IMG/VR virus record: IMGVR_UViG_2529293240_000015
Coordinates: 1-10,110 of that record
Reading direction: 5' to 3' (one strand)
From: a virus
Taxonomy: Duplodnaviria; Heunggongvirae; Uroviricota; Caudoviricetes
Length of the DNA: 10,110 nt
The position numbers were made by a program, and so were the translations under genes. This document shows positions 1-7,543 of the stretch, in pieces. Every line of letters starts with the position of its first letter. Positions within the stretch are counted from its first letter, which is position 1. The notes under the pieces were generated by a model. That model worked only from the letters and a program-made list of their open reading frames with translations. It ran no database searches and was not told where the DNA came from.

Positions 1-39
1 ATGTTTACGCTGGCGGAAACGGGTTAGCGTTTGCCCCAG
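1..39 (-). pseudogene. dpiA: dpiA (citB) response regulator, distal part of the insertion-disrupted gene (partial, continues beyond window start)
   Basis: Reverse complement of 39..1 translates LGQTLTRFRQRKH, continuing in frame the receiver-domain ORF interrupted at 8305 (...YERLG). Matches my recollection of E. coli DpiA (...ERLGQTLTRFRQRK...). Not verified by search. Confidence 0.75.
35..39. repeat. Left copy of 5-bp target-site duplication CCCAG flanking the Mu-like element
   Basis: CCCAG lies immediately outside the left phage end (TG at 40..41) and is repeated identically at 8305..8309 immediately outside the right end (CA at 8303..8304). A 5-bp duplication is the known Mu transposition signature. 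Confidence 0.85.
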
Positions 40-250
40 TGTATTGATTCACTTGAAGTACGAAAAAACCGGGAGAACATTGGATTATTCGGGATCTGAT
101 GGGATTAGATTTGGTGGGGCTTGCAAGCCTGTAGTACAAATTTTAGGCGTTAACCAATGAAACGCGAAAGATAGTAAAAAATTGCTTTTGTTTCATTGAA
201 AAAACGAAAACAAAAACACTATAAATCATTTCAATCATAGCTTCAAAAAA
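40..250 (+). other. Mu-type left end (attL) with transposase-binding repeats (L1-L3 region)
   Basis: Terminal 5'-TG; repeated TGxTTCAYT...CGAAA(A) motifs, e.g. TTGATTCACTTGAAGTACGAAAAAA near 44..68 and TGTTTCATTGAAAAAACGAAAAC near 199..221; matches recalled Mu left-end sequence almost base for base. Extent is approximate. Confidence 0.7.
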
Positions 251-375
251 CGTTCAAAACCGATAACAACCAGGCTGTCACCAAATGACTCATATCACAA
301 ATCAGCTCATGCCGTTTAGGTATGTTACATGTGTGATTATGTGAGGTTAAGTATGTTTTAGCTGGCTCATGGTTG

Positions 376-885
376 TTATACGGCTTTTTTCGCATCTTGT
401 GGTTCCAACAAAGGAGCTACAGGCTCTTCCTGTTTATGAACACCATACATTGACAAAATCTCTTGGCGAGTTTCTGGAGGTAATTTATGCAGCGCCAAAG
501 CTGTTTGTAGTGTTTGGCGATCAATACCCAGCGTTGCCAATAGGGTGTCAACGGAGATGGAGGGGCGTTCTTGCATTAATCCGGAAAGCCCATATTTAGC
601 CATGTTTAGCTCTATCTCTCGGACTTCATTTTCTCCTAGTTTATTGATTAACAGGGAGAACATTTTCAATGTATCAGCATTCATTTCTTCGATAGCAATT
701 TTTTGCATAGCCGGTATTGCCGGGATATATTCAACCCCAGGCCCGCGACGCCCTTCTTGTGAACGCTTCGGCCATCCTTCTTTCTTTGCTCGTTTATGCA
801 CCCCCTGTATTGTCCCAGGCATTCCATCCAGTTCAGTAATTTGTTTGGGTGTCATCCACTGGTTTATCTCATTTGCGCTTTTCAT
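376..885 (-). CDS. c: Mu-like phage repressor c (immunity repressor), 169 aa
   Basis: Divergent from ner, as in Mu. N-terminal motif LDGMPGTIQGVHKRAKKEGWPKRSQEGRRGPGVEY is paralogous to the N-terminus of the transposase in this same window ([33 protein letters not shown]); the repressor and MuA share this DNA-binding domain in Mu. Confidence 0.8.
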   Translation of the reverse strand: MKSANEINQWMTPKQITELDGMPGTIQGVHKRAKKEGWPKRSQEGRRGPGVEYIPAIPAMQKIAIEEMNADTLKMFSLLINKLGENEVREIELNMAKYGLSGLMQERPSISVDTLLATLGIDRQTLQTALALHKLPPETRQEILSMYGVHKQEEPVAPLLEPQDAKKAV

Positions 886-1047
886 AAACTAAGTTTACCA
901 GATTTATCTATATAAAAATCAATGGATTACAAAATAAACCACATCAACTGATATAAATCGATTGGGTTTATTTGGTTTATATGGCAATGTATAAAACAGA
1001 TAATCAAGACGAATTATTTGTTTTGATAACCCTTTATCATACGCAAT
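886..1047. promoter_or_regulatory. c/ner divergent operator and early promoter region (Mu O1-O3, Pe/Pc equivalent) with an IHF consensus match
   Basis: AT-rich 160-bp intergenic region between divergent c and ner; AATCAATGGATTA at 917..929 fits the IHF consensus WATCAANNNNTTR; repeated GGTTTAT motifs at about 975..995. Individual operators not delimited. Confidence 0.5.
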
Positions 1048-1302
1048 ATGGTTGGTGTGCGAAAGATGAGTAACGATTGGCATCGGGCCGACGTGATTGC
1101 GGCCCTCAAAAAAACAGGAACCCCTCTGGCAAAATTGTCCAGACGTTCAGGTTATTCAACCGGGACGCTTGCAAATGCATTAGTCAGGCCATGGCCTAAA
1201 GGTGAACGCATTATTGCTGACGCCTTAAACATGAAACCTGAGGAAATTTGGCCTAGTAGATATCTAAGGGATCACAATGAGAGAGTGGATATCAGCAATT
1301 GA
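1048..1302 (+). CDS. ner: Ner-like DNA-binding transcriptional regulator (Mu Ner / E. coli Nlp family)
   Basis: DWHRADVIAALKK...TLANAL..PWPKGERIIADAL..KPEEIWPSRY matches the Ner/Nlp family signature. True start may be the second ATG at 1066 (MSNDWHR...). Confidence 0.85.
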   Translation: MVGVRKMSNDWHRADVIAALKKTGTPLAKLSRRSGYSTGTLANALVRPWPKGERIIADALNMKPEEIWPSRYLRDHNERVDISN

Positions 1303-2912
1303 ATGCATGGGTTTATCTGGTTTACCTGGTTCATTAATGGGGGGTTCACAAAAGAGCTCAGAGAGAAGGATGGCTCAAGAGAAGAAGAGAAGGAATTAGA
1401 GGGGTTGCTTACGAATACCATATATCTTCTCTTCCTAACATTGCTCGAGCTGAAGTTTTGCTCCAACAAGGAAAATTTAAAACCAGTCAGGGATGTTTTG
1501 AAATCGCCCGCCCCACGCTGGAAGCTCATGATTATGATCGTGAGGCACTATGGAGCAAATGGGATAAAGCCAGCGATTCCCAGCGCAGCCTGGCTGAAAA
1601 ATGGTTGCCCTCAATTCAGGCCACAGACGAAATGCTGAACCAGGGGATTTCAACGAAAACGGCTTTTGCGACCGTTGCAGGGCATTACCAGGTCAGCGCA
1701 TCCACTTTGCGGGACAAGTATTACCAGGTACAGAAGTTTGCGAAGCCTGACTGGGCGGCTGCACTTGTTGATGGACGTGGAGCATCCCGTCGCAATGTTC
1801 ACAAAAGTGAATTTGACAAGGATGCCTGGCAGTTTCTGATTGCAGATTATCTGCGACCGGAAAAACCCGCCTTCCGCAAATGTTATGAGCGTCTGGAACT
1901 GGCAGCCCGCGAGCATGGCTGGAGTATTCCCTCCCGTGCCACGGCCTTTCGCCGGATTCAGCAACTGGACGAGGCAATGGTTGTTGCCTGTCGTGAAGGT
2001 GAACATGCACTGATGCATCTGATACCGGCACAGCAGCGAACTGTGGAACACCTGGACGCCATGCAGTGGATCAACGGCGACGGTTATCTGCATAACGTCT
2101 TTGTACGCTGGTTTAACGGTGATGTGATCCGTCCGAAAACATGGTTCTGGCAGGATGTGAAAACCCGAAAAATTCTGGGCTGGCGCTGCGATGTGAGCGA
2201 GAACATTGATTCAATTCGCCTCTCGTTCATGGATGTTGTGACTCGCTACAGTATCCCGGAGGATTTTCACATCACCATTGATAACACCCGTGGTGCTGCG
2301 AATAAATGGCTGACGGGAGGCGCGCCCAATCGCTACCGCTTTAAGGTAAAAGAGGACGATCCAAAAGGACTGTTTTTACTGATGGGTGCGAAAATGCACT
2401 GGACAAGCGTTGTTGCCGGTAAAGGCTGGGGCCAGGCAAAACCTGTTGAACGTGCTTTCGGTGTTGGTGGGCTTGAGGAATACGTTGATAAGCATCCGGC
2501 ACTGGCTGGCGCATATACGGGGCCAAATCCGCAGGCAAAACCTGATAACTATGGCGACCGCGCTGTTGATGCAGAGCTGTTTCTGAAAACCCTTGCCGAA
2601 GGTGTGGCGATGTTCAATGCCAGAACAGGCCGTGAAACAGAAATGTGCGGGGGCAAACTCTCGTTTGATGATGTTTTCGAGCGTGAATACGCCAGAACGA
2701 TTGTGCGTAAGCCAACCGAAGAACAAAAACGGATGCTGTTACTGCCTGCCGAGGCAGTGAACGTTTCACGCAAAGGCGAGTTTACGCTTAAAGTTGGCGG
2801 CTCCCTTAAAGGCGCGAAAAACGTTTATTACAACATGGCATTAATGAATGCCGGAGTGAAAAAAGTTGTGGTCAGATTTGATCCACAGCAGTTACACAGC
2901 ACGGTTTATTGA
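1277..2912 (+). pseudogene. A: Mu-like transposase A, pseudogene: +1 frameshift in G6 run at 1339..1344 and C-terminal truncation by IS600 at 2910
   Basis: ATG at 1277 gives [23 protein letters not shown] (cf. Mu MELWVSPKECANLPGLPKTSAGV); after GGGGGG the homologous frame shifts by one base ([10 protein letters not shown]...[27 protein letters not shown]...), continuing through the DDE core ([19 protein letters not shown]) to ...QQLHSTVY, where the TGA stop is supplied by the IS600 terminus. Mu A has about 100 further C-terminal residues (CYTLDGRF...) that are absent. Confidence 0.9.
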
Positions 2913-2973
2913 GGTAGCCTGAGTTTAACGGACACTCCTTCCTGAAATAGAATGGCATCAGAAGGAGCTAATA

Positions 2974-3276
2974 ATGAGCAGAAAAACCCAACGTTACTCT
3001 AAAGAGTTCAAAGCCGAAGCTGTCAGAACGGTTCTTGAAAATCAACTTTCGATCAGTGAAGGCGCTTCCCGATTATCTCTTCCTGAAGGCACTTTAGGAC
3101 AATGGGTTACCGCCGCCAGAAAAGGGCTCGGTACTCCTGGTTCCCGCACGGTGGCTGAACTGGAATCTGAAATTCTGCAACTGCGTAAGGCGTTAAATGA
3201 AGCTCGCCTTGAGCGAGATATATTAAAAAAAGCAACAGCGTATTTTGCACAGGAGTCGCTGAAAAATACGCGTTAA
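2974..3276 (+). CDS. IS600 OrfA (IS3-family transposase N-terminal, HTH/leucine-zipper protein)
   Basis: MSRKTQRYSKEFKAEAVRTVLENQLSISEGASRLSLPEGTLGQWV...; AGGAG Shine-Dalgarno at 2963..2967. Confidence 0.9.
   Translation: MSRKTQRYSKEFKAEAVRTVLENQLSISEGASRLSLPEGTLGQWVTAARKGLGTPGSRTVAELESEILQLRKALNEARLERDILKKATAYFAQESLKNTR
3225..3231 (+). other. IS600 programmed -1 ribosomal frameshift slippery run (A7 followed by G) joining orfA to orfB
   Basis: tta aaa aaa g in the orfA frame; shifting -1 here continues in the orfB frame (orfB is in frame 0, orfA in frame 1), giving the OrfAB fusion typical of IS3-family elements. Confidence 0.7.
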
Positions 3277-3311
3277 TCGAACAATGGCGACAACAATTTC
3301 CCATTGAAGCG

Positions 3312-4130
3312 ATGTGTCAGGTATTTGGTGTATCCAGGAGCGGTTATTACAACTGGGTACAGCATGAACCCTCAGACAGAAAACAAAGTGATGAGCGGCT
3401 AAAACTGGAGATTAAGGTGGCACATATCCGCACTCGCGAAACATATGGAACCCGGCGGCTCCAGACGGAGCTGGCAGAGAATGGCATCATCGTTGGTCGT
3501 GACCGACTGGCACGTCTTCGTAAGGAGCTAAGGCTACGCTGTAAGCAGAAACGCAAGTTCAGAGCGACTACGAACCCGAACCACAATCTGCCAGTTGCGC
3601 CAAATCTGCTGAACCAGACGTTCGCTCCTACAGCACCAAATCAGGTCTGGGTGGCGGACCTGACGTATGTTGCCACACAGGAGGGATGGTTGTACCTCGC
3701 TGGCATCAAAGATGTTTATACGTGCGAAATTGTCGGCTACGCCATGGGAGAGCGCATGACAAAAGAGCTGACAGGTAAAGCCCTGTTTATGGCGCTCAGG
3801 AGCCAGCGCCCACCTGCCGGGCTAATCCACCACTCTGATCGAGGTTCACAGTACTGCGCATACGATTACCGGGTCATACAGGAGCAGTTTGGTCTGAAAA
3901 CATCAATGTCGCGTAAAGGTAACTGTTACGACAACGCTCCGATGGAAAGCTTCTGGGGAACGCTGAAAAATGAGAGCCTGAGCCACTATCGTTTTAATAA
4001 CCGGGATGAAGCCATCTCAGTAATACGGGAATACATTGAGATTTTCTACAATCGTCAGCGTCGTCACTCTCGTCTGGGGAATATCTCCCCGGCAGCCTTC
4101 AGGGAAAAATATCATCAGATGGCTGCTTAA
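3312..4130 (+). CDS. IS600 OrfB (IS3-family DDE transposase catalytic domain; expressed as OrfAB fusion)
   Basis: ...QVWVADLTYV...IHHSDRGSQY...NAPMESFWGTLKNE... is the IS3-family integrase-like DDE core; the reading frame is open upstream of the 3312 ATG back to the slippery site. Confidence 0.9.
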   Translation: MCQVFGVSRSGYYNWVQHEPSDRKQSDERLKLEIKVAHIRTRETYGTRRLQTELAENGIIVGRDRLARLRKELRLRCKQKRKFRATTNPNHNLPVAPNLLNQTFAPTAPNQVWVADLTYVATQEGWLYLAGIKDVYTCEIVGYAMGERMTKELTGKALFMALRSQRPPAGLIHHSDRGSQYCAYDYRVIQEQFGLKTSMSRKGNCYDNAPMESFWGTLKNESLSHYRFNNRDEAISVIREYIEIFYNRQRRHSRLGNISPAAFREKYHQMAA

Positions 4131-4173
4131 AAAAAGAACAAATGGTAGTGTCCGCTATTGCCAGTACACCTCA

Positions 4174-4890
4174 AACAATAAGGTCATTACAGATACAGGT
4201 TGCGGAAATATTTGTCTTGCAGGTGCTGTGGTGGAAGTTACTGGCACTCGCGGCGCAATGACCATACGCGTTACTACGCCAAGTACGTCCAGCGGCGGCG
4301 GAATCACTAACGCTCAATTCACTTATATTAATCATGGTGATGCTTATGCTCCTGGCTGGCGAAGAGACTACAATACGAAAAACCAGCAGCCTGCATTTGC
4401 TTTAGGGCAAACAGGAAGCAGGGTTGCAAATGATAAAGCTGTTGGCTGGAACTGGAATAGCGGTGTTTATGATGCAAATATCAGCGGTGCATCAACATTA
4501 ATCCTCCACTTCAATAAGAATACGGGGAGCTGCCCTGCTGTACAGTTCCGTGTGAATTATAAGAACGGCGGTATTTTTTATCGTTCAGCGCGTGATGGTT
4601 ATGGATTTGAGGCTGGCTGGTCAGAGTTTTACACCACAACACGCAAGCCATCAGCGAGAGATGTTGGCGCATATACGCAGGCAGAATGTAACTCAAGGTT
4701 TATTACAGGTATTCGCCTTGGTGGTCTGTCATCTGTTCGGACATGGAATGGTCCCGGCTGGTCTGACAGGTCAGGTTATGTTGTTACCGGTTCCGTTAAC
4801 TCAAACAGAGATGAACTAATTGATACAACTCAGGCAAGGCCAATTCAGTATTGCATTAATGGGACGTGGTATAACGCGGGGAGTATTTAA
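4174..4890 (+). pseudogene. S: Tail-fibre variable C-terminal region (Mu S variable part equivalent), 5'-truncated at the IS600 boundary
   Basis: Frame is open from inside IS600 (the track ORF at 4036 is a chimera); C-terminus ...RPIQYCINGTWYNAGSI parallels the end of the minus-strand cassette (...[17 protein letters not shown]); immediately followed by a tail-fibre assembly gene. No phage-derived start or constant region is present. Confidence 0.7.
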
Positions 4891-4892
4891 CG

Positions 4893-5426
4893 ATGATGCA
4901 CTTAAAAAACATTTCTGCTGGTAATCCTGAAACAAAAGAGCAATACCAGCTAACGAAACAATTTAACATCAAATGGCTTTATACAGAGGATGGGAAAAAC
5001 TGGTATGAGGAACAAAAGAACTTTCAGCCTGATACGTTGAAAATGGTCTATGACCACAACGGCGTTATTATTTGTATTGAAAAGGATGTTTCAGCAATTA
5101 ATCCGGAAGGCGCAAGCGTCGTTGAGGTTCCTGATATTACAGCAAATCACCGGGCTGATATTTCAGGTAAATGGATGTTCAAAGATGGCATAGTGATAAA
5201 GCGAACTTATACCGGGGAAGAGCAGAGGCAACAAGTGGAAAATGAAAAGCAAAGCCTGTTGCAACTTGTCAGGGATAAAACCCAGCTATGGGACTCACAG
5301 CTACGGCTGGGCATCATTTCCGCCGGGAATAAGCAGAAATTAACCGAGTGGATGCTCTACGCGCAGAAGGTCGAATCCACAGACACCTCCAGTCTGCCAG
5401 TAACGTTTCCCGAACAACCAGAATGA
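4893..5426 (+). CDS. U: Tail-fibre assembly protein (Mu U-like chaperone), 177 aa
   Basis: MMHLKNISAGN...DGKNWYEEQKNFQPDT...[28 protein letters not shown] is the Tfa/U family signature; starts 2 nt after the tail-fibre stop. Confidence 0.8.
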   Translation: MMHLKNISAGNPETKEQYQLTKQFNIKWLYTEDGKNWYEEQKNFQPDTLKMVYDHNGVIICIEKDVSAINPEGASVVEVPDITANHRADISGKWMFKDGIVIKRTYTGEEQRQQVENEKQSLLQLVRDKTQLWDSQLRLGIISAGNKQKLTEWMLYAQKVESTDTSSLPVTFPEQPE

Positions 5427-5431
5427 GAGAA

Positions 5432-5457
5432 GGCCCGCTATCGGGCCTTAATTTTTA
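5432..5457 (+). terminator. Rho-independent terminator hairpin between the convergent U and U' genes
   Basis: GGCCCG-ctat-CGGGCC stem-loop (5432..5447) followed by TTAATTTTTA on the plus strand, directly after the U stop codon. Confidence 0.6.
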
Positions 5458-5982
5458 CTCTGGTTTTTGTGGCCATTCTGGCTTTGCCGTATCCACACGG
5501 CTGACCAGAACACTGTAGCGTTCCCATGACTCCAGTCGTGCGCGTTCCTCATCTGTTGCCATATTCAGCCTGACAGAGCGCTCCAGCGGCTGGATGACTG
5601 ATTCAGCTTCGGAAAGCAATGCGGCTTTTTGTGATTCGGCCTGTTGCTGCTGTTCGTCTGCCGTATAAATCCGCTTAACCACAGCTCCGTCCTTAAACAT
5701 CCACTTCCCGGAATCATCGGCACGACGATTTGCTGTTATATCGGGGACCTCAACGACGCTAAAGCCTTCAGGATTAAGCGTGGAGGCATCTTTAGTGATG
5801 GCGACAATAATATTATTTTCATCGTAAACAATCTTTATTGTATCTGGCTGAAAGTTCTTCACTTCCCCATACCAGTTTTTTCCGTCTTCTGTCCACAACC
5901 AGATTACGTCAAAATTCTTTGTTAATTCGTACTGTTCCAGTGTTTTAGCGTTACCCGCTTTAATGTTCTTTAAGTGCATCAT
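5455..5982 (-). CDS. U': Tail-fibre assembly protein (Mu U'-like chaperone), 175 aa
   Basis: Paralogue of the plus-strand U ([11 protein letters not shown]...[16 protein letters not shown]...[19 protein letters not shown]), encoded convergently, as in the Mu invertible G segment. Confidence 0.8.
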
Positions 5983-5983
5983 A

Positions 5984-6970
5984 TTAAACGCTCGCTACAT
6001 TATACCAAGTGCCATTTATATACTTTTGAATCGGTCTGTAATAAACACCCGCAATATTATCGGCAGAGTTGGAACCTGTATCCTGAACATTAATACCAGA
6101 CAATACATGACCTGAAGGGCACTGAAAATTCCATGTTTGCCAGTTGTTCACTCCATAATATTGCTGTGAACCAAGTCGAACATCTTTCACATATCTGGAA
6201 TCAAAATTGCCATAGTTGCCGGGAATAACTTGCGAACCGCAAAGCCAGTTCCCGTTATTATCCATGTACGCCTGACCATCGGTGCCATTGGCTGTCCTTG
6301 AGTTATTAATCATGTAGATGCCAAATTGCCTATTCCCCAGCCCACCAATTACGAATTTACGGTCGGTATGGTCCTGGCGAAGCAATGCCTGCGCACCATC
6401 GTTGGATACCGCATTACGGCCCATAATAACGTTCTGGTCACGCATATGAATCCACATGCCTGTACTGCTGTTAATTAAAAAACGGTTTGTAAATATATCT
6501 CCTGTAACAACCAGACCATGCCCCATGCTTATCCGGCCAGTTCTGAGATTAAGCGTAAAGGGGCGTAGTGGCCCTATATTACCATTTTCCCCTTCATTCT
6601 CTCGTGTAGGGATGATATGCAGGCATTCTTCAGAACGACGAAAAATGGCACCAAAAGATGAATTAAATATTCTCAGTGCATTGACCGTCGATATTTTTAC
6701 TTCACTGCTGAAAAGGGCTTTAACAAGAACATACAGAGCATCCCATTTAAGATTCATCAGGTCTTTAACCCGGCCGCCAGTGAGGTGGTGTCTCCATTTG
6801 AAATACTCATTGCCGTTGTCGCCTGTTTCAAACCACATGTATGAATCAGTATCGCTGTCGGCATCATTTTTAAATCCAATCTTTGCCCAGTCAGTATTCC
6901 GAATCCAGGCAAGGATTGAGTCGTTTTCAAAAGTAAGTCCACCGGACAACGTATCGCCATTTTTTTGCAC
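5984..6970 (-). CDS. S': Alternative tail-fibre variable cassette (Mu S' variable part equivalent); not a self-standing gene in the intact phage
   Basis: C-terminus ...[19 protein letters not shown]; stop is 1 nt from the U' start; the reading frame stays open upstream through the gix-like site (to at least 7043). In Mu this cassette is only expressed after inversion fuses it to the constant part of S. The track start at 6970 is a GTG. Confidence 0.7.
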
Positions 6971-6995
6971 GGCGTTACCAGCCTTGTTTACCGTT

Positions 6996-7021
6996 TCCTG
7001 TAAACCGAGGGGCCGTTTCTG
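6996..7021. other. gix-like recombination site at the right border of the tail-fibre cassette region (only one half-site recognisable)
   Basis: TTCCTGTAAACCGAGG at 6996..7011 matches the Gin crossover site as I recall it (TTCCTGTAAACC-GA-GGTTTTGGATAA); the following half (GGCCGTTTCTGG) does not match. No partner site was found at the left border near 4174. Confidence 0.45.
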
Positions 7022-7063
7022 GCCTGCATGGCATGATTTCCGCTTTTAAACGGGGAATTCAGC

Positions 7064-7261
7064 GTGCTGATTGGCTATGTAAGGGTATCAACAAATGACC
7101 AGAATACAGACCTGCAACGAAACGCTCTTGTTTGTGCAGGATGTGAACAAATATTTGAAGATAAATTAAGCGGAACAAGGACAGACCGACCGGGATTAAA
7201 ACGTGCTTTAAAGCGCCTTCAAAAAGGAACGCATATAGAAAACGACGATCGAATCAATTAA
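7064..7261 (+). pseudogene. gin: gin DNA invertase remnant: in-frame internal deletion leaving 65 aa (N-terminal 55 aa plus C-terminal THIENDDRIN)
   Basis: MLIGYVRVSTNDQNTDLQRNALVCAGCEQIFEDKLSGTRTDRPGLKRALKRLQKG matches the Gin/Hin serine-recombinase N-terminus including the catalytic Ser (VRVST); it then joins directly to the recalled Gin C-terminal tail (..HIENDDRIN). About 128 codons of catalytic and HTH domains are missing, relative to a roughly 190-aa Gin. Confidence 0.85.
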
Positions 7262-7354
7262 ATCGATCTGTATTACCGATCGATTATGTCCCGATAACCA
7301 CACCCGACTGATGAGATTTTTTAAGATAACGGCGAATTGATGCAAGGAGGTGAA
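7247..7354 (+). promoter_or_regulatory. mom operon regulatory region: three GATC (Dam) sites including an 8-bp inverted repeat, upstream of com
   Basis: GATC at 7247..7250, 7265..7268 and 7278..7281; AATCGATC (7261..7268) and GATCGATT (7278..7285) form an inverted repeat. In Mu this cluster is the Dam-methylation-sensitive OxyR-binding region of Pmom. GGAGG Shine-Dalgarno at 7346..7350. Confidence 0.65.
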
Positions 7355-7543
7355 ATGAAATCAATTCGCTGTAAGAACTGCAACAAACTGTTATTTAAAG
7401 CGGATTCCTTTGATCACATTGAAATCAGGTGTCCGCGTTGCAAACGTCACATCATAATGCTGAATGCCTGCGAGCATCCCACGGAGAAACATTGTGGGAA
7501 AAGAGAAGAAATCACGCATTCTGACGAAACCGTGCGTTATTGA
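7355..7543 (+). CDS. com: Com, zinc-finger translational activator of mom (62 aa)
   Basis: [61 protein letters not shown]; a Cys4 protein essentially identical to my recollection of Mu Com. Start chosen at the ATG preceded by GGAGG rather than the track ORF start at 7337. Confidence 0.85.

Follow-up and report, generated by a model that had tools for sequence, protein, structure and literature searches.

The stretch of DNA analysed here (the window) comprises 10,110 nucleotides, positions 1 to 10,110 of the IMG/VR virus record IMGVR_UViG_2529293240_000015, and carries the remnant of a Mu-like prophage that has undergone an internal deletion of 29,719 bp, as counted on the map of the Mu-like phage SfMu, with a complete copy of the insertion sequence (IS) IS600 standing exactly at the joint. 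To the left of IS600, window positions 1446..2909 are 97.8% identical to gene A (transposase) of SfMu and Mu and end at SfMu 2900 (Mu 2962). To the right, the phage sequence resumes at position 4174, the equivalent of SfMu 32620 (codon 251 of a tail-fibre gene of 489 amino acids, aa). On the Mu map this base is 34783 of the minus strand and lies in the invertible G segment, about 81 codons in; this S-side sequence at the right end of IS600 reads AACAATAAGG. Both flank alignments overrun into IS600 by 2 bp (TG on the left, CA on the right), a chance match that leaves the breakpoints unchanged. Absent is thus SfMu 2901..32619; counted on Mu with its G segment flipped, the loss amounts to about 29.2 kb. 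SfMu has the two flanks 29,719 bp apart, and neither their order nor their orientation there differs from that of the window. Since the flanks are collinear and both Mu ends as well as the 5-bp host duplication are intact, the event is an internal deletion, and the deletion joint of about 30 kb that a previous inspection of the letters (the sequence-only reading) had placed here is borne out by this collinear gap.

The comparison with intact Mu-like prophages, which that reading had proposed, allowed both breakpoints to be mapped and corrected several details. In no intact relative examined (Mu, SfMu and the prophage of the same immunity type in Escherichia coli UMNF18) are the two flanks contiguous, the outcome that would have pointed to a simple insertion, and gene A of the UMNF18 prophage reads straight across the IS600 site (GGTTTAT followed directly by TGTTACACC). 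Gene A is cut at codon 544 (545 in Mu numbering) and not near codon 560, 15 codons away, as had been estimated, and its in-frame stop is TGA, the first three bases of IS600. The right flank does lie in the variable part of the tail-fibre gene, as had been stated, albeit in the first quarter of that part rather than in its middle; it is the middle of the whole S gene. Likewise, the loss from B to the constant part of S is confirmed, but it reaches further on both sides: A has lost its last 119 codons, SfMu genes 4 to 48 are all missing, and of S the whole constant part is gone together with the first ~81 codons of the variable part. By its sequence, the deletion left none of the replication, lysis, head and tail genes, and the prophage is predicted to be fixed in place, unable to excise, to transpose or to form particles. 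Gene A furthermore carries a +1 frameshift near codon 21 (G6 at 1339..1344 versus G5 in relatives), which is seen only in the lineage of strain J17B (the window and the related locus L005), and the 544-aa frame is uninterrupted in the loci L014, L047 and L058.

The triplets flanking IS600 (TAT at 2907..2909 and AAC at 4174..4176) had been reported as unmatched, and so they are: they differ at all three positions, and no matching direct repeat of 2 to 5 bp is present between the two flanks. The 3-bp target duplication of IS600 is consequently lacking at the window copy. Since such a duplication does accompany two IS600 copies elsewhere in related loci (CTC/CTC in ybeF, L011, and GTC/GTC in L021), the mismatch in the window is a genuine departure from simple insertion, and the missing duplication marks a secondary rearrangement and not another element. 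In every other respect the element is IS600. From end to end it shares 99.9% identity with elements on Shigella and E. coli plasmids that bear the annotation 'IS3-like element IS600 family transposase'. It starts with TGAGGTAGCC at 2910 and ends with CACCTCA at 4173, thereby carrying the terminal 5'-TG...CA-3', and its ends are set independently by seven further full-length copies, each in different flanks. The inverted repeats are imperfect (TGAGGT... and ...ACCTCA), with the first six bases perfect and a conserved CGGACAC block. Starting from 3231, the -1 shifted frame stays open into orfB at 3312, and the resulting orfA-orfB fusion product of 385 aa is annotated in CP100042.1. The copy is therefore complete, as the sequence-only reading had it (1264 bp, inverted repeats, orfA and orfB, slippery site).

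The joint is not an assembly artefact, because it occurs in identical form in at least five independent assemblies, among them chromosome-scale ones (CP100042.1, UGYT01000001.1 and UGYQ01000001.1). The window is 100% identical to AFOW01000008.1 and differs by one indel from CP100042.1, the chromosome of Shigella flexneri serotype 3a strain J17B (PMC10732043). Further occurrences of the TAT-IS600-AAC joint were found in AKMV01000005.1, QWTC01000024.1 and several draft and Logan contigs. Among complete genomes of E. coli the joint is absent, and no place there covers at least 80% of the window. In the literature searched, only general statements on SfMu remnants and IS-mediated deletion were found, and no account of this locus or its joint.

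The left part of the window (1..4173, including the A-TAT/IS600 junction) is found at 99.3% identity in many more genomes of S. flexneri, in which the right-hand partner of IS600 varies between AAC (as in the window), ATT, GTC and TCG. Carriers include S. flexneri 2a ATCC 29903 and CP000266.1, which we take to be serotype 5b strain 8401. In genomes of this type, IS600 is followed on the right by ATTCTTTGGC, part of the head-gene region of another prophage, which runs on the opposite strand and shares 95-99% identity with prophages of E. coli and with phage vB_EcoM-689R2. This rightward connection to opposite-strand head genes, seen in L014 (1..6765), L020 and L021, is the commonest form in S. 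flexneri. The right partner sites that go with the fixed A-TAT left end are window 4174, window 6030 (A-TAT-IS600-TCG, strain 89-141) and two sites in another prophage. In a further arrangement, variant X (FDAARGOS_713 and others), both flanks differ (TGC and AGC), with IS600 lying between window 312 and 4435. The strain names ATCC 29903 (2a), 89-141 and FDAARGOS_713 are taken from PMC9455713. Each variant retains a subset of the Mu DNA found in the window. Over the shared 3.4 kb, single-nucleotide polymorphisms (SNPs) form a star-like pattern in which J17B has the outgroup allele at every site; this fits, without proving it, a history in which the window arrangement would be the oldest of those seen.

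Two of these loci form a pair that bears directly on the mechanism. In L021 the A-TAT copy is accompanied by a second, directly oriented IS600 2.1 kb away, which has the GTC/GTC duplication, and L020 has a single IS600 with A-TAT on the left and GTCATCATC on the right, exactly the product that would be expected from recombination between the two L021 copies. For this sister joint, at the same IS copy, the two-copy arrangement is therefore seen. Because five different joints are found at the same copy, the arrangements compared here show the A-TAT IS600 copy as an apparently recurrent recombination substrate.

For the window joint, a precursor was searched for by means of the junctions predicted for simple insertions, which in A would read CAGTACACCTCA-TAT-TGCTACACC and in the variable part of S (Sv) GCTTATGCAAAC-TGAGRTAGCC. 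No match to either junction (right end of IS600, TAT and downstream A; upstream Sv, AAC and left end of IS600) was obtained in species-representative genomes and JGI metagenomes, collections that hold few Shigella, which makes this a weak negative. Accordingly, these collections yielded no IS600 inserted simply into A or S between matching 3-bp repeats, the arrangement for which the sequence-only reading had suggested looking in other strains. An exact protein look-up with U', aimed at an intermediate with an extra IS600, returned ten contexts, all ten of them in the window arrangement. A protein search with the last 118 aa of SfMu A, aimed at short gene calls that would come after an IS, yielded three short contigs from unrelated assemblies (L066-L068), which begin 1-3 nt past the IS600 site in A (Mu 2964..2966) and continue into B and kil. 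They were rejected as precursors, being without IS600 end sequence and just 86-95% identical to Mu and SfMu in that region, and so not closely related to the remnant; their starts are probably assembly-graph forks at a TGC/TGT polymorphism or a mosaic boundary. SNPs within IS600 were likewise rejected as a means of ordering the events. Positions 169 and 307 of the element show all four allele combinations in orthologous copies, for which reason gene conversion is likely.

Of the two mechanisms that the sequence-only reading had named, adjacent deletion and recombination between two IS600 copies, both are left after the comparisons described above, and we consider a two-step route, with a second IS600 in the same orientation followed by homologous recombination, the most likely one and on balance probable. 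According to this route, a Mu-like phage transposed into dpiA of an S. flexneri ancestor, the step that is taken as shown; a first IS600 would then have entered one of the two sites, probably that in A, and a second one, in the same orientation, the other site, each insertion producing its own 3-bp duplication. Host homologous recombination between the direct copies would have excised the intervening DNA together with one IS copy, and the remaining IS600 would have kept the left flank of one site (TAT) and the right flank of the other (AAC). What such a recombination-deletion leaves behind, namely one IS at the joint, collinear flanks and unmatched duplications, is what is found in the window. 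Elements of the IS3 family transpose by a copy-out-paste-in pathway with a circular intermediate, which makes a new copy, leaves the donor site untouched and causes no adjacent deletion. The two-step route is favoured because of this pathway, the L021/L020 pair and the IS600 x IS600 deletion on the virulence plasmid pINV. On that plasmid of S. flexneri, recombination between two IS600 copies deleting ~48 kb was observed experimentally (PMC5629016), and deletion between homologous IS copies has been described as a general route of genome decay in Shigella (PMC7373316).

Several observations weigh against the two-step route. No genome with a two-copy parent or with a simple TAT or AAC duplication was found in the collections scanned, which hold few Shigella. 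The variant joints abut the IS600 ends precisely and retain nested subsets, the classical signature of adjacent deletion, and the surviving IS600 of L020 has only the alleles of the A copy, so that the crossover would have to fall in the last 284 bp. Moreover, the products of the two-step route and of a one-step, transposase-driven adjacent deletion, by which a single IS600, resident at one of the two sites, would attack with one of its ends a target in the same molecule some 30 kb off, the DNA in between being lost and the IS remaining at the joint, are identical in sequence, and the window alone cannot separate them. The one-step deletion would account for the single IS600 precisely at the joint, for the unmatched triplets and for the nested joints, four of which have the left end fixed at A-TAT and one of which (variant X) is moved inward on both sides (312 and 4435), and it agrees with the failure to find a two-copy intermediate of the window joint. 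We nevertheless regard it as rather unlikely, as copy-out-paste-in does not itself delete adjacent DNA and as the sole case with an intermediate (L021 to L020) is a two-copy recombination. Still more doubtful is the broader reading that the IS600 copy acts as a fixed anchor and itself generates nested one-sided deletions and rearrangements across S. flexneri lineages, with at least five partners; if true, adjacent deletions driven by the transposase would occur in nature with an element of the IS3 family, something that the canonical pathway does not predict.

Two further explanations differ in what happened to the deleted DNA or in the order of events. The joint could be one half of an IS600-mediated inversion or translocation, with the 30 kb still present elsewhere in the genome; IS-mediated inversions are common in Shigella, and most S. 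flexneri genomes join the same IS600 to opposite-strand head genes of another prophage, a connection that resembles such a rearrangement. This is very improbable for the window, however, whose flanks are ordered and oriented as on the phage map, an outcome that inversion cannot give, and whose right flank is unbroken to the Mu right end and the matching host duplication. That the deletion arose beforehand by illegitimate recombination and that IS600 was inserted into the finished joint later would likewise leave one IS between A and S, with nothing that speaks for it specifically. An insertion of this kind should be marked by a 3-bp duplication, like those of the CTC and GTC copies, and the A-TAT/IS600 junction is joined to unrelated DNA elsewhere, so that the IS-A junction is independent of the A-S joint; we give this order of events the least credence of all.

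Deletion joints occupied by an IS that has no matching duplication are known, textbook material and frequent in Shigella, and several known systems come close to the window event. Elements such as IS1, IS10 and IS903 produce adjacent deletions directly, by intramolecular transposition; these resemble the window event in that the IS is kept, the DNA on one side is lost and the duplication is unmatched, but the direct-deletion pathway is not established for an IS3-family element. The IS150-linked rbs deletions of experimentally evolved E. coli B also have an IS3-family element at the joints, with one end fixed and variable far endpoints, and Cooper et al. 2001 are said to have attributed them to the same two-step route, reportedly explaining them by a fresh insertion close by, which then recombined with the copy already present. 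Element, host and target are others there, and the events recurred within a few thousand generations. The pINV deletions (PMC5629016) share with the window the element and the species, two direct copies, a loss of tens of kb (~48 versus 29.7) and one copy left. They differ in being located on a plasmid, observed in the laboratory and derived from parental copies that are both known, whereas the window event took place on the chromosome, within a prophage, goes back far enough for several lineages to have it in common and has a two-copy parent that is inferred. Mu-like (SfMu) prophage remnants have been detected in many S. flexneri serotypes by polymerase chain reaction (PCR) and Southern blot (PMC4406740); in A, the G segment and com-mom, the window remnant and SfMu share 94-98% identity, and the dpiA location, the IS600 joint and the breakpoints are not part of that report.

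Existing knowledge of IS600, Mu and Shigella genome decay is left unchanged by these results. What they add are exact breakpoints for a Mu-like remnant fixed in dpiA across S. flexneri, a clean and well-mapped example in which a single IS600 copy was reused for several later rearrangements. The locus is a convenient structural marker for S. flexneri lineages and a natural test bed for recombination-driven versus transposase-driven IS deletions.

Table 1 Features of the prophage remnant, the IS600 copy and the adjoining host DNA (positions are those of the window).
Feature	Position	Strand	Basis or remark
Left target duplication CCCAG, 5 bp	35..39	.	Host ...GCCCCAG precedes Mu left end TGTATTGATTCAC
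Mu-like prophage remnant, both ends present, internal ~29.7 kb gone	40..8304	+	40 = Mu/SfMu base 1; 8304 = last base
c repressor gene, 169 aa, intact	376..885	-	Pfam HTH_Tnp_Mu_1
ner, 78 aa	1066..1302	+	Pfam HTH_35; between c and A as in Mu
Truncated transposase gene A, 544 codons	1277..2912	+	Pfam HTH_Tnp_Mu_1, HTH_Tnp_Mu_2, DDE_2, Mu-transpos_C
Left flanking triplet TAT, codon 544 of A (Tyr545, Mu numbering)	2907..2909	+	Read from sequence
IS600, complete, 1264 bp	2910..4173	+ (gene A direction)	Full-length identity; ends fixed by other copies
IS600 orfA, 100 aa	2974..3276	+	Pfam HTH_Tnp_1
A7 slippery run, -1 frameshift, orfA-orfB fusion	3225..3231	+	Read from sequence
IS600 orfB, 272 aa, DDE/rve catalytic domain	3312..4130	+	Pfam HTH_21, rve, rve_3, rve_2
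Right flanking triplet AAC	4174..4176	+	Mu likewise AAC here, SfMu AAT
S variable-part 3' fragment, 238 codons (Mu S' / SfMu orf49 type)	4174..4890	+	Alignment
Tail-fibre assembly gene U, 177 aa	4893..5426	+	Pfam Caudo_TAP
Tail-fibre assembly gene U', 175 aa	5455..5982	-	Sequence comparison
Alternative tail-fibre variable part, 328 aa, opposite strand of G segment	5984..6970	-	Pfam Gp34_trimer
G segment right end, recombination half-site TTCCTGTAAACCGAGG	6996..7011	+	L048 alignment flips strand at 7010/7011
gin remnant	7064..7261	+	380-bp internal deletion, joint 7223..7227
com	7355..7543	+	Pfam Zn_ribbon_Com
mom, intact	7464..8189	+	Pfam Mom
Host response-regulator gene dpiA, N-terminal fragment, split by prophage	8265..8648	-	Pfam Response_reg
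Right target duplication CCCAG	8305..8309	.	Directly after Mu right end

The features collected in Table 1 identify the host element of IS600 as a Mu-like prophage by its ends, its 5-bp host duplication and its gene order (c, ner, A ... S-U-U'-S', gin, com, mom), which is that of Mu save for the deleted middle and an internally deleted gin. It is a non-functional remnant: the gene set of a functional phage is lacking, A being truncated and frameshifted and B absent. The remnant lies in dpiA, between dcuC and dpiB-citCDEFXG, and the empty site with an intact dpiA (citB) of 226 aa is found in four E. coli contigs (L029, L033-L035). The protein of the c repressor is indexed in identical form in 6687 blocks of public assemblies, and its DNA is 92% identical to that of the UMNF18 prophage; intact and widespread as it is, the repressor may be retained for superinfection immunity. 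The immunity region (~485..1445, with c, the operators, ner and the start of A) is of another type than that of SfMu and Mu. It has no close match in Mu, SfMu or D108, and its nearest relative found is the yphC prophage of E. coli UMNF18 (92% identity).

At the right end of the remnant, the G segment is frozen, because its left inversion site was removed by the deletion and gin is internally deleted. The annotated G boundary of Mu lies at 35025. A full 26-bp pattern for the Mu inversion site gave no match in the window, and the half-site listed in Table 1 was read directly from the sequence instead. The joint within gin connects SfMu 35684 to 36064 (Mu 35255 to 35635) with an overlap of ~5 bp, is common to every variant of the dpiA remnant, and leaves a 65-aa Resolvase fragment that is called in relatives. 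The same gin joint is present in a prophage at another site (L048), which is 100% identical to the window over 7011..8304. This Mu-like prophage (L048 6426..11963) lies near flgJKL/rne and has tail, baseplate and full-length S genes, as read over 10 kb upstream of mom. The G segment of this prophage, inverted relative to that of the window, shares 94.9% identity with it. At its right end the prophage adjoins an IS600 of which only positions 1..1152 align within the locus, which would fit a transposition of the phage into IS600.

IS1 is also present in some forms of the remnant. In L039, L041 and L043-L045, as in variant X, the second tail-fibre variable gene holds an IS1 whose 9-bp duplication lies at 6219..6227; it is a simple insertion, unlike the IS600 joints. 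In a further, separate group of genomes, the right part of the Mu remnant is connected at window 6665, through IS1, with an integrase next to ybhA. If the head-gene junction and this IS1-ybhA junction co-occurred in one genome, an inversion of ~145 kb with later trimming would be suggested. Next to the prophage, dpiB is called with 497 aa here, compared to 552 aa in L042, L047 and L063, and a 38-aa fragment is called upstream in L006. Judged by these gene calls, dpiB is probably a pseudogene in this lineage as well, with the lesion lying past the window end.

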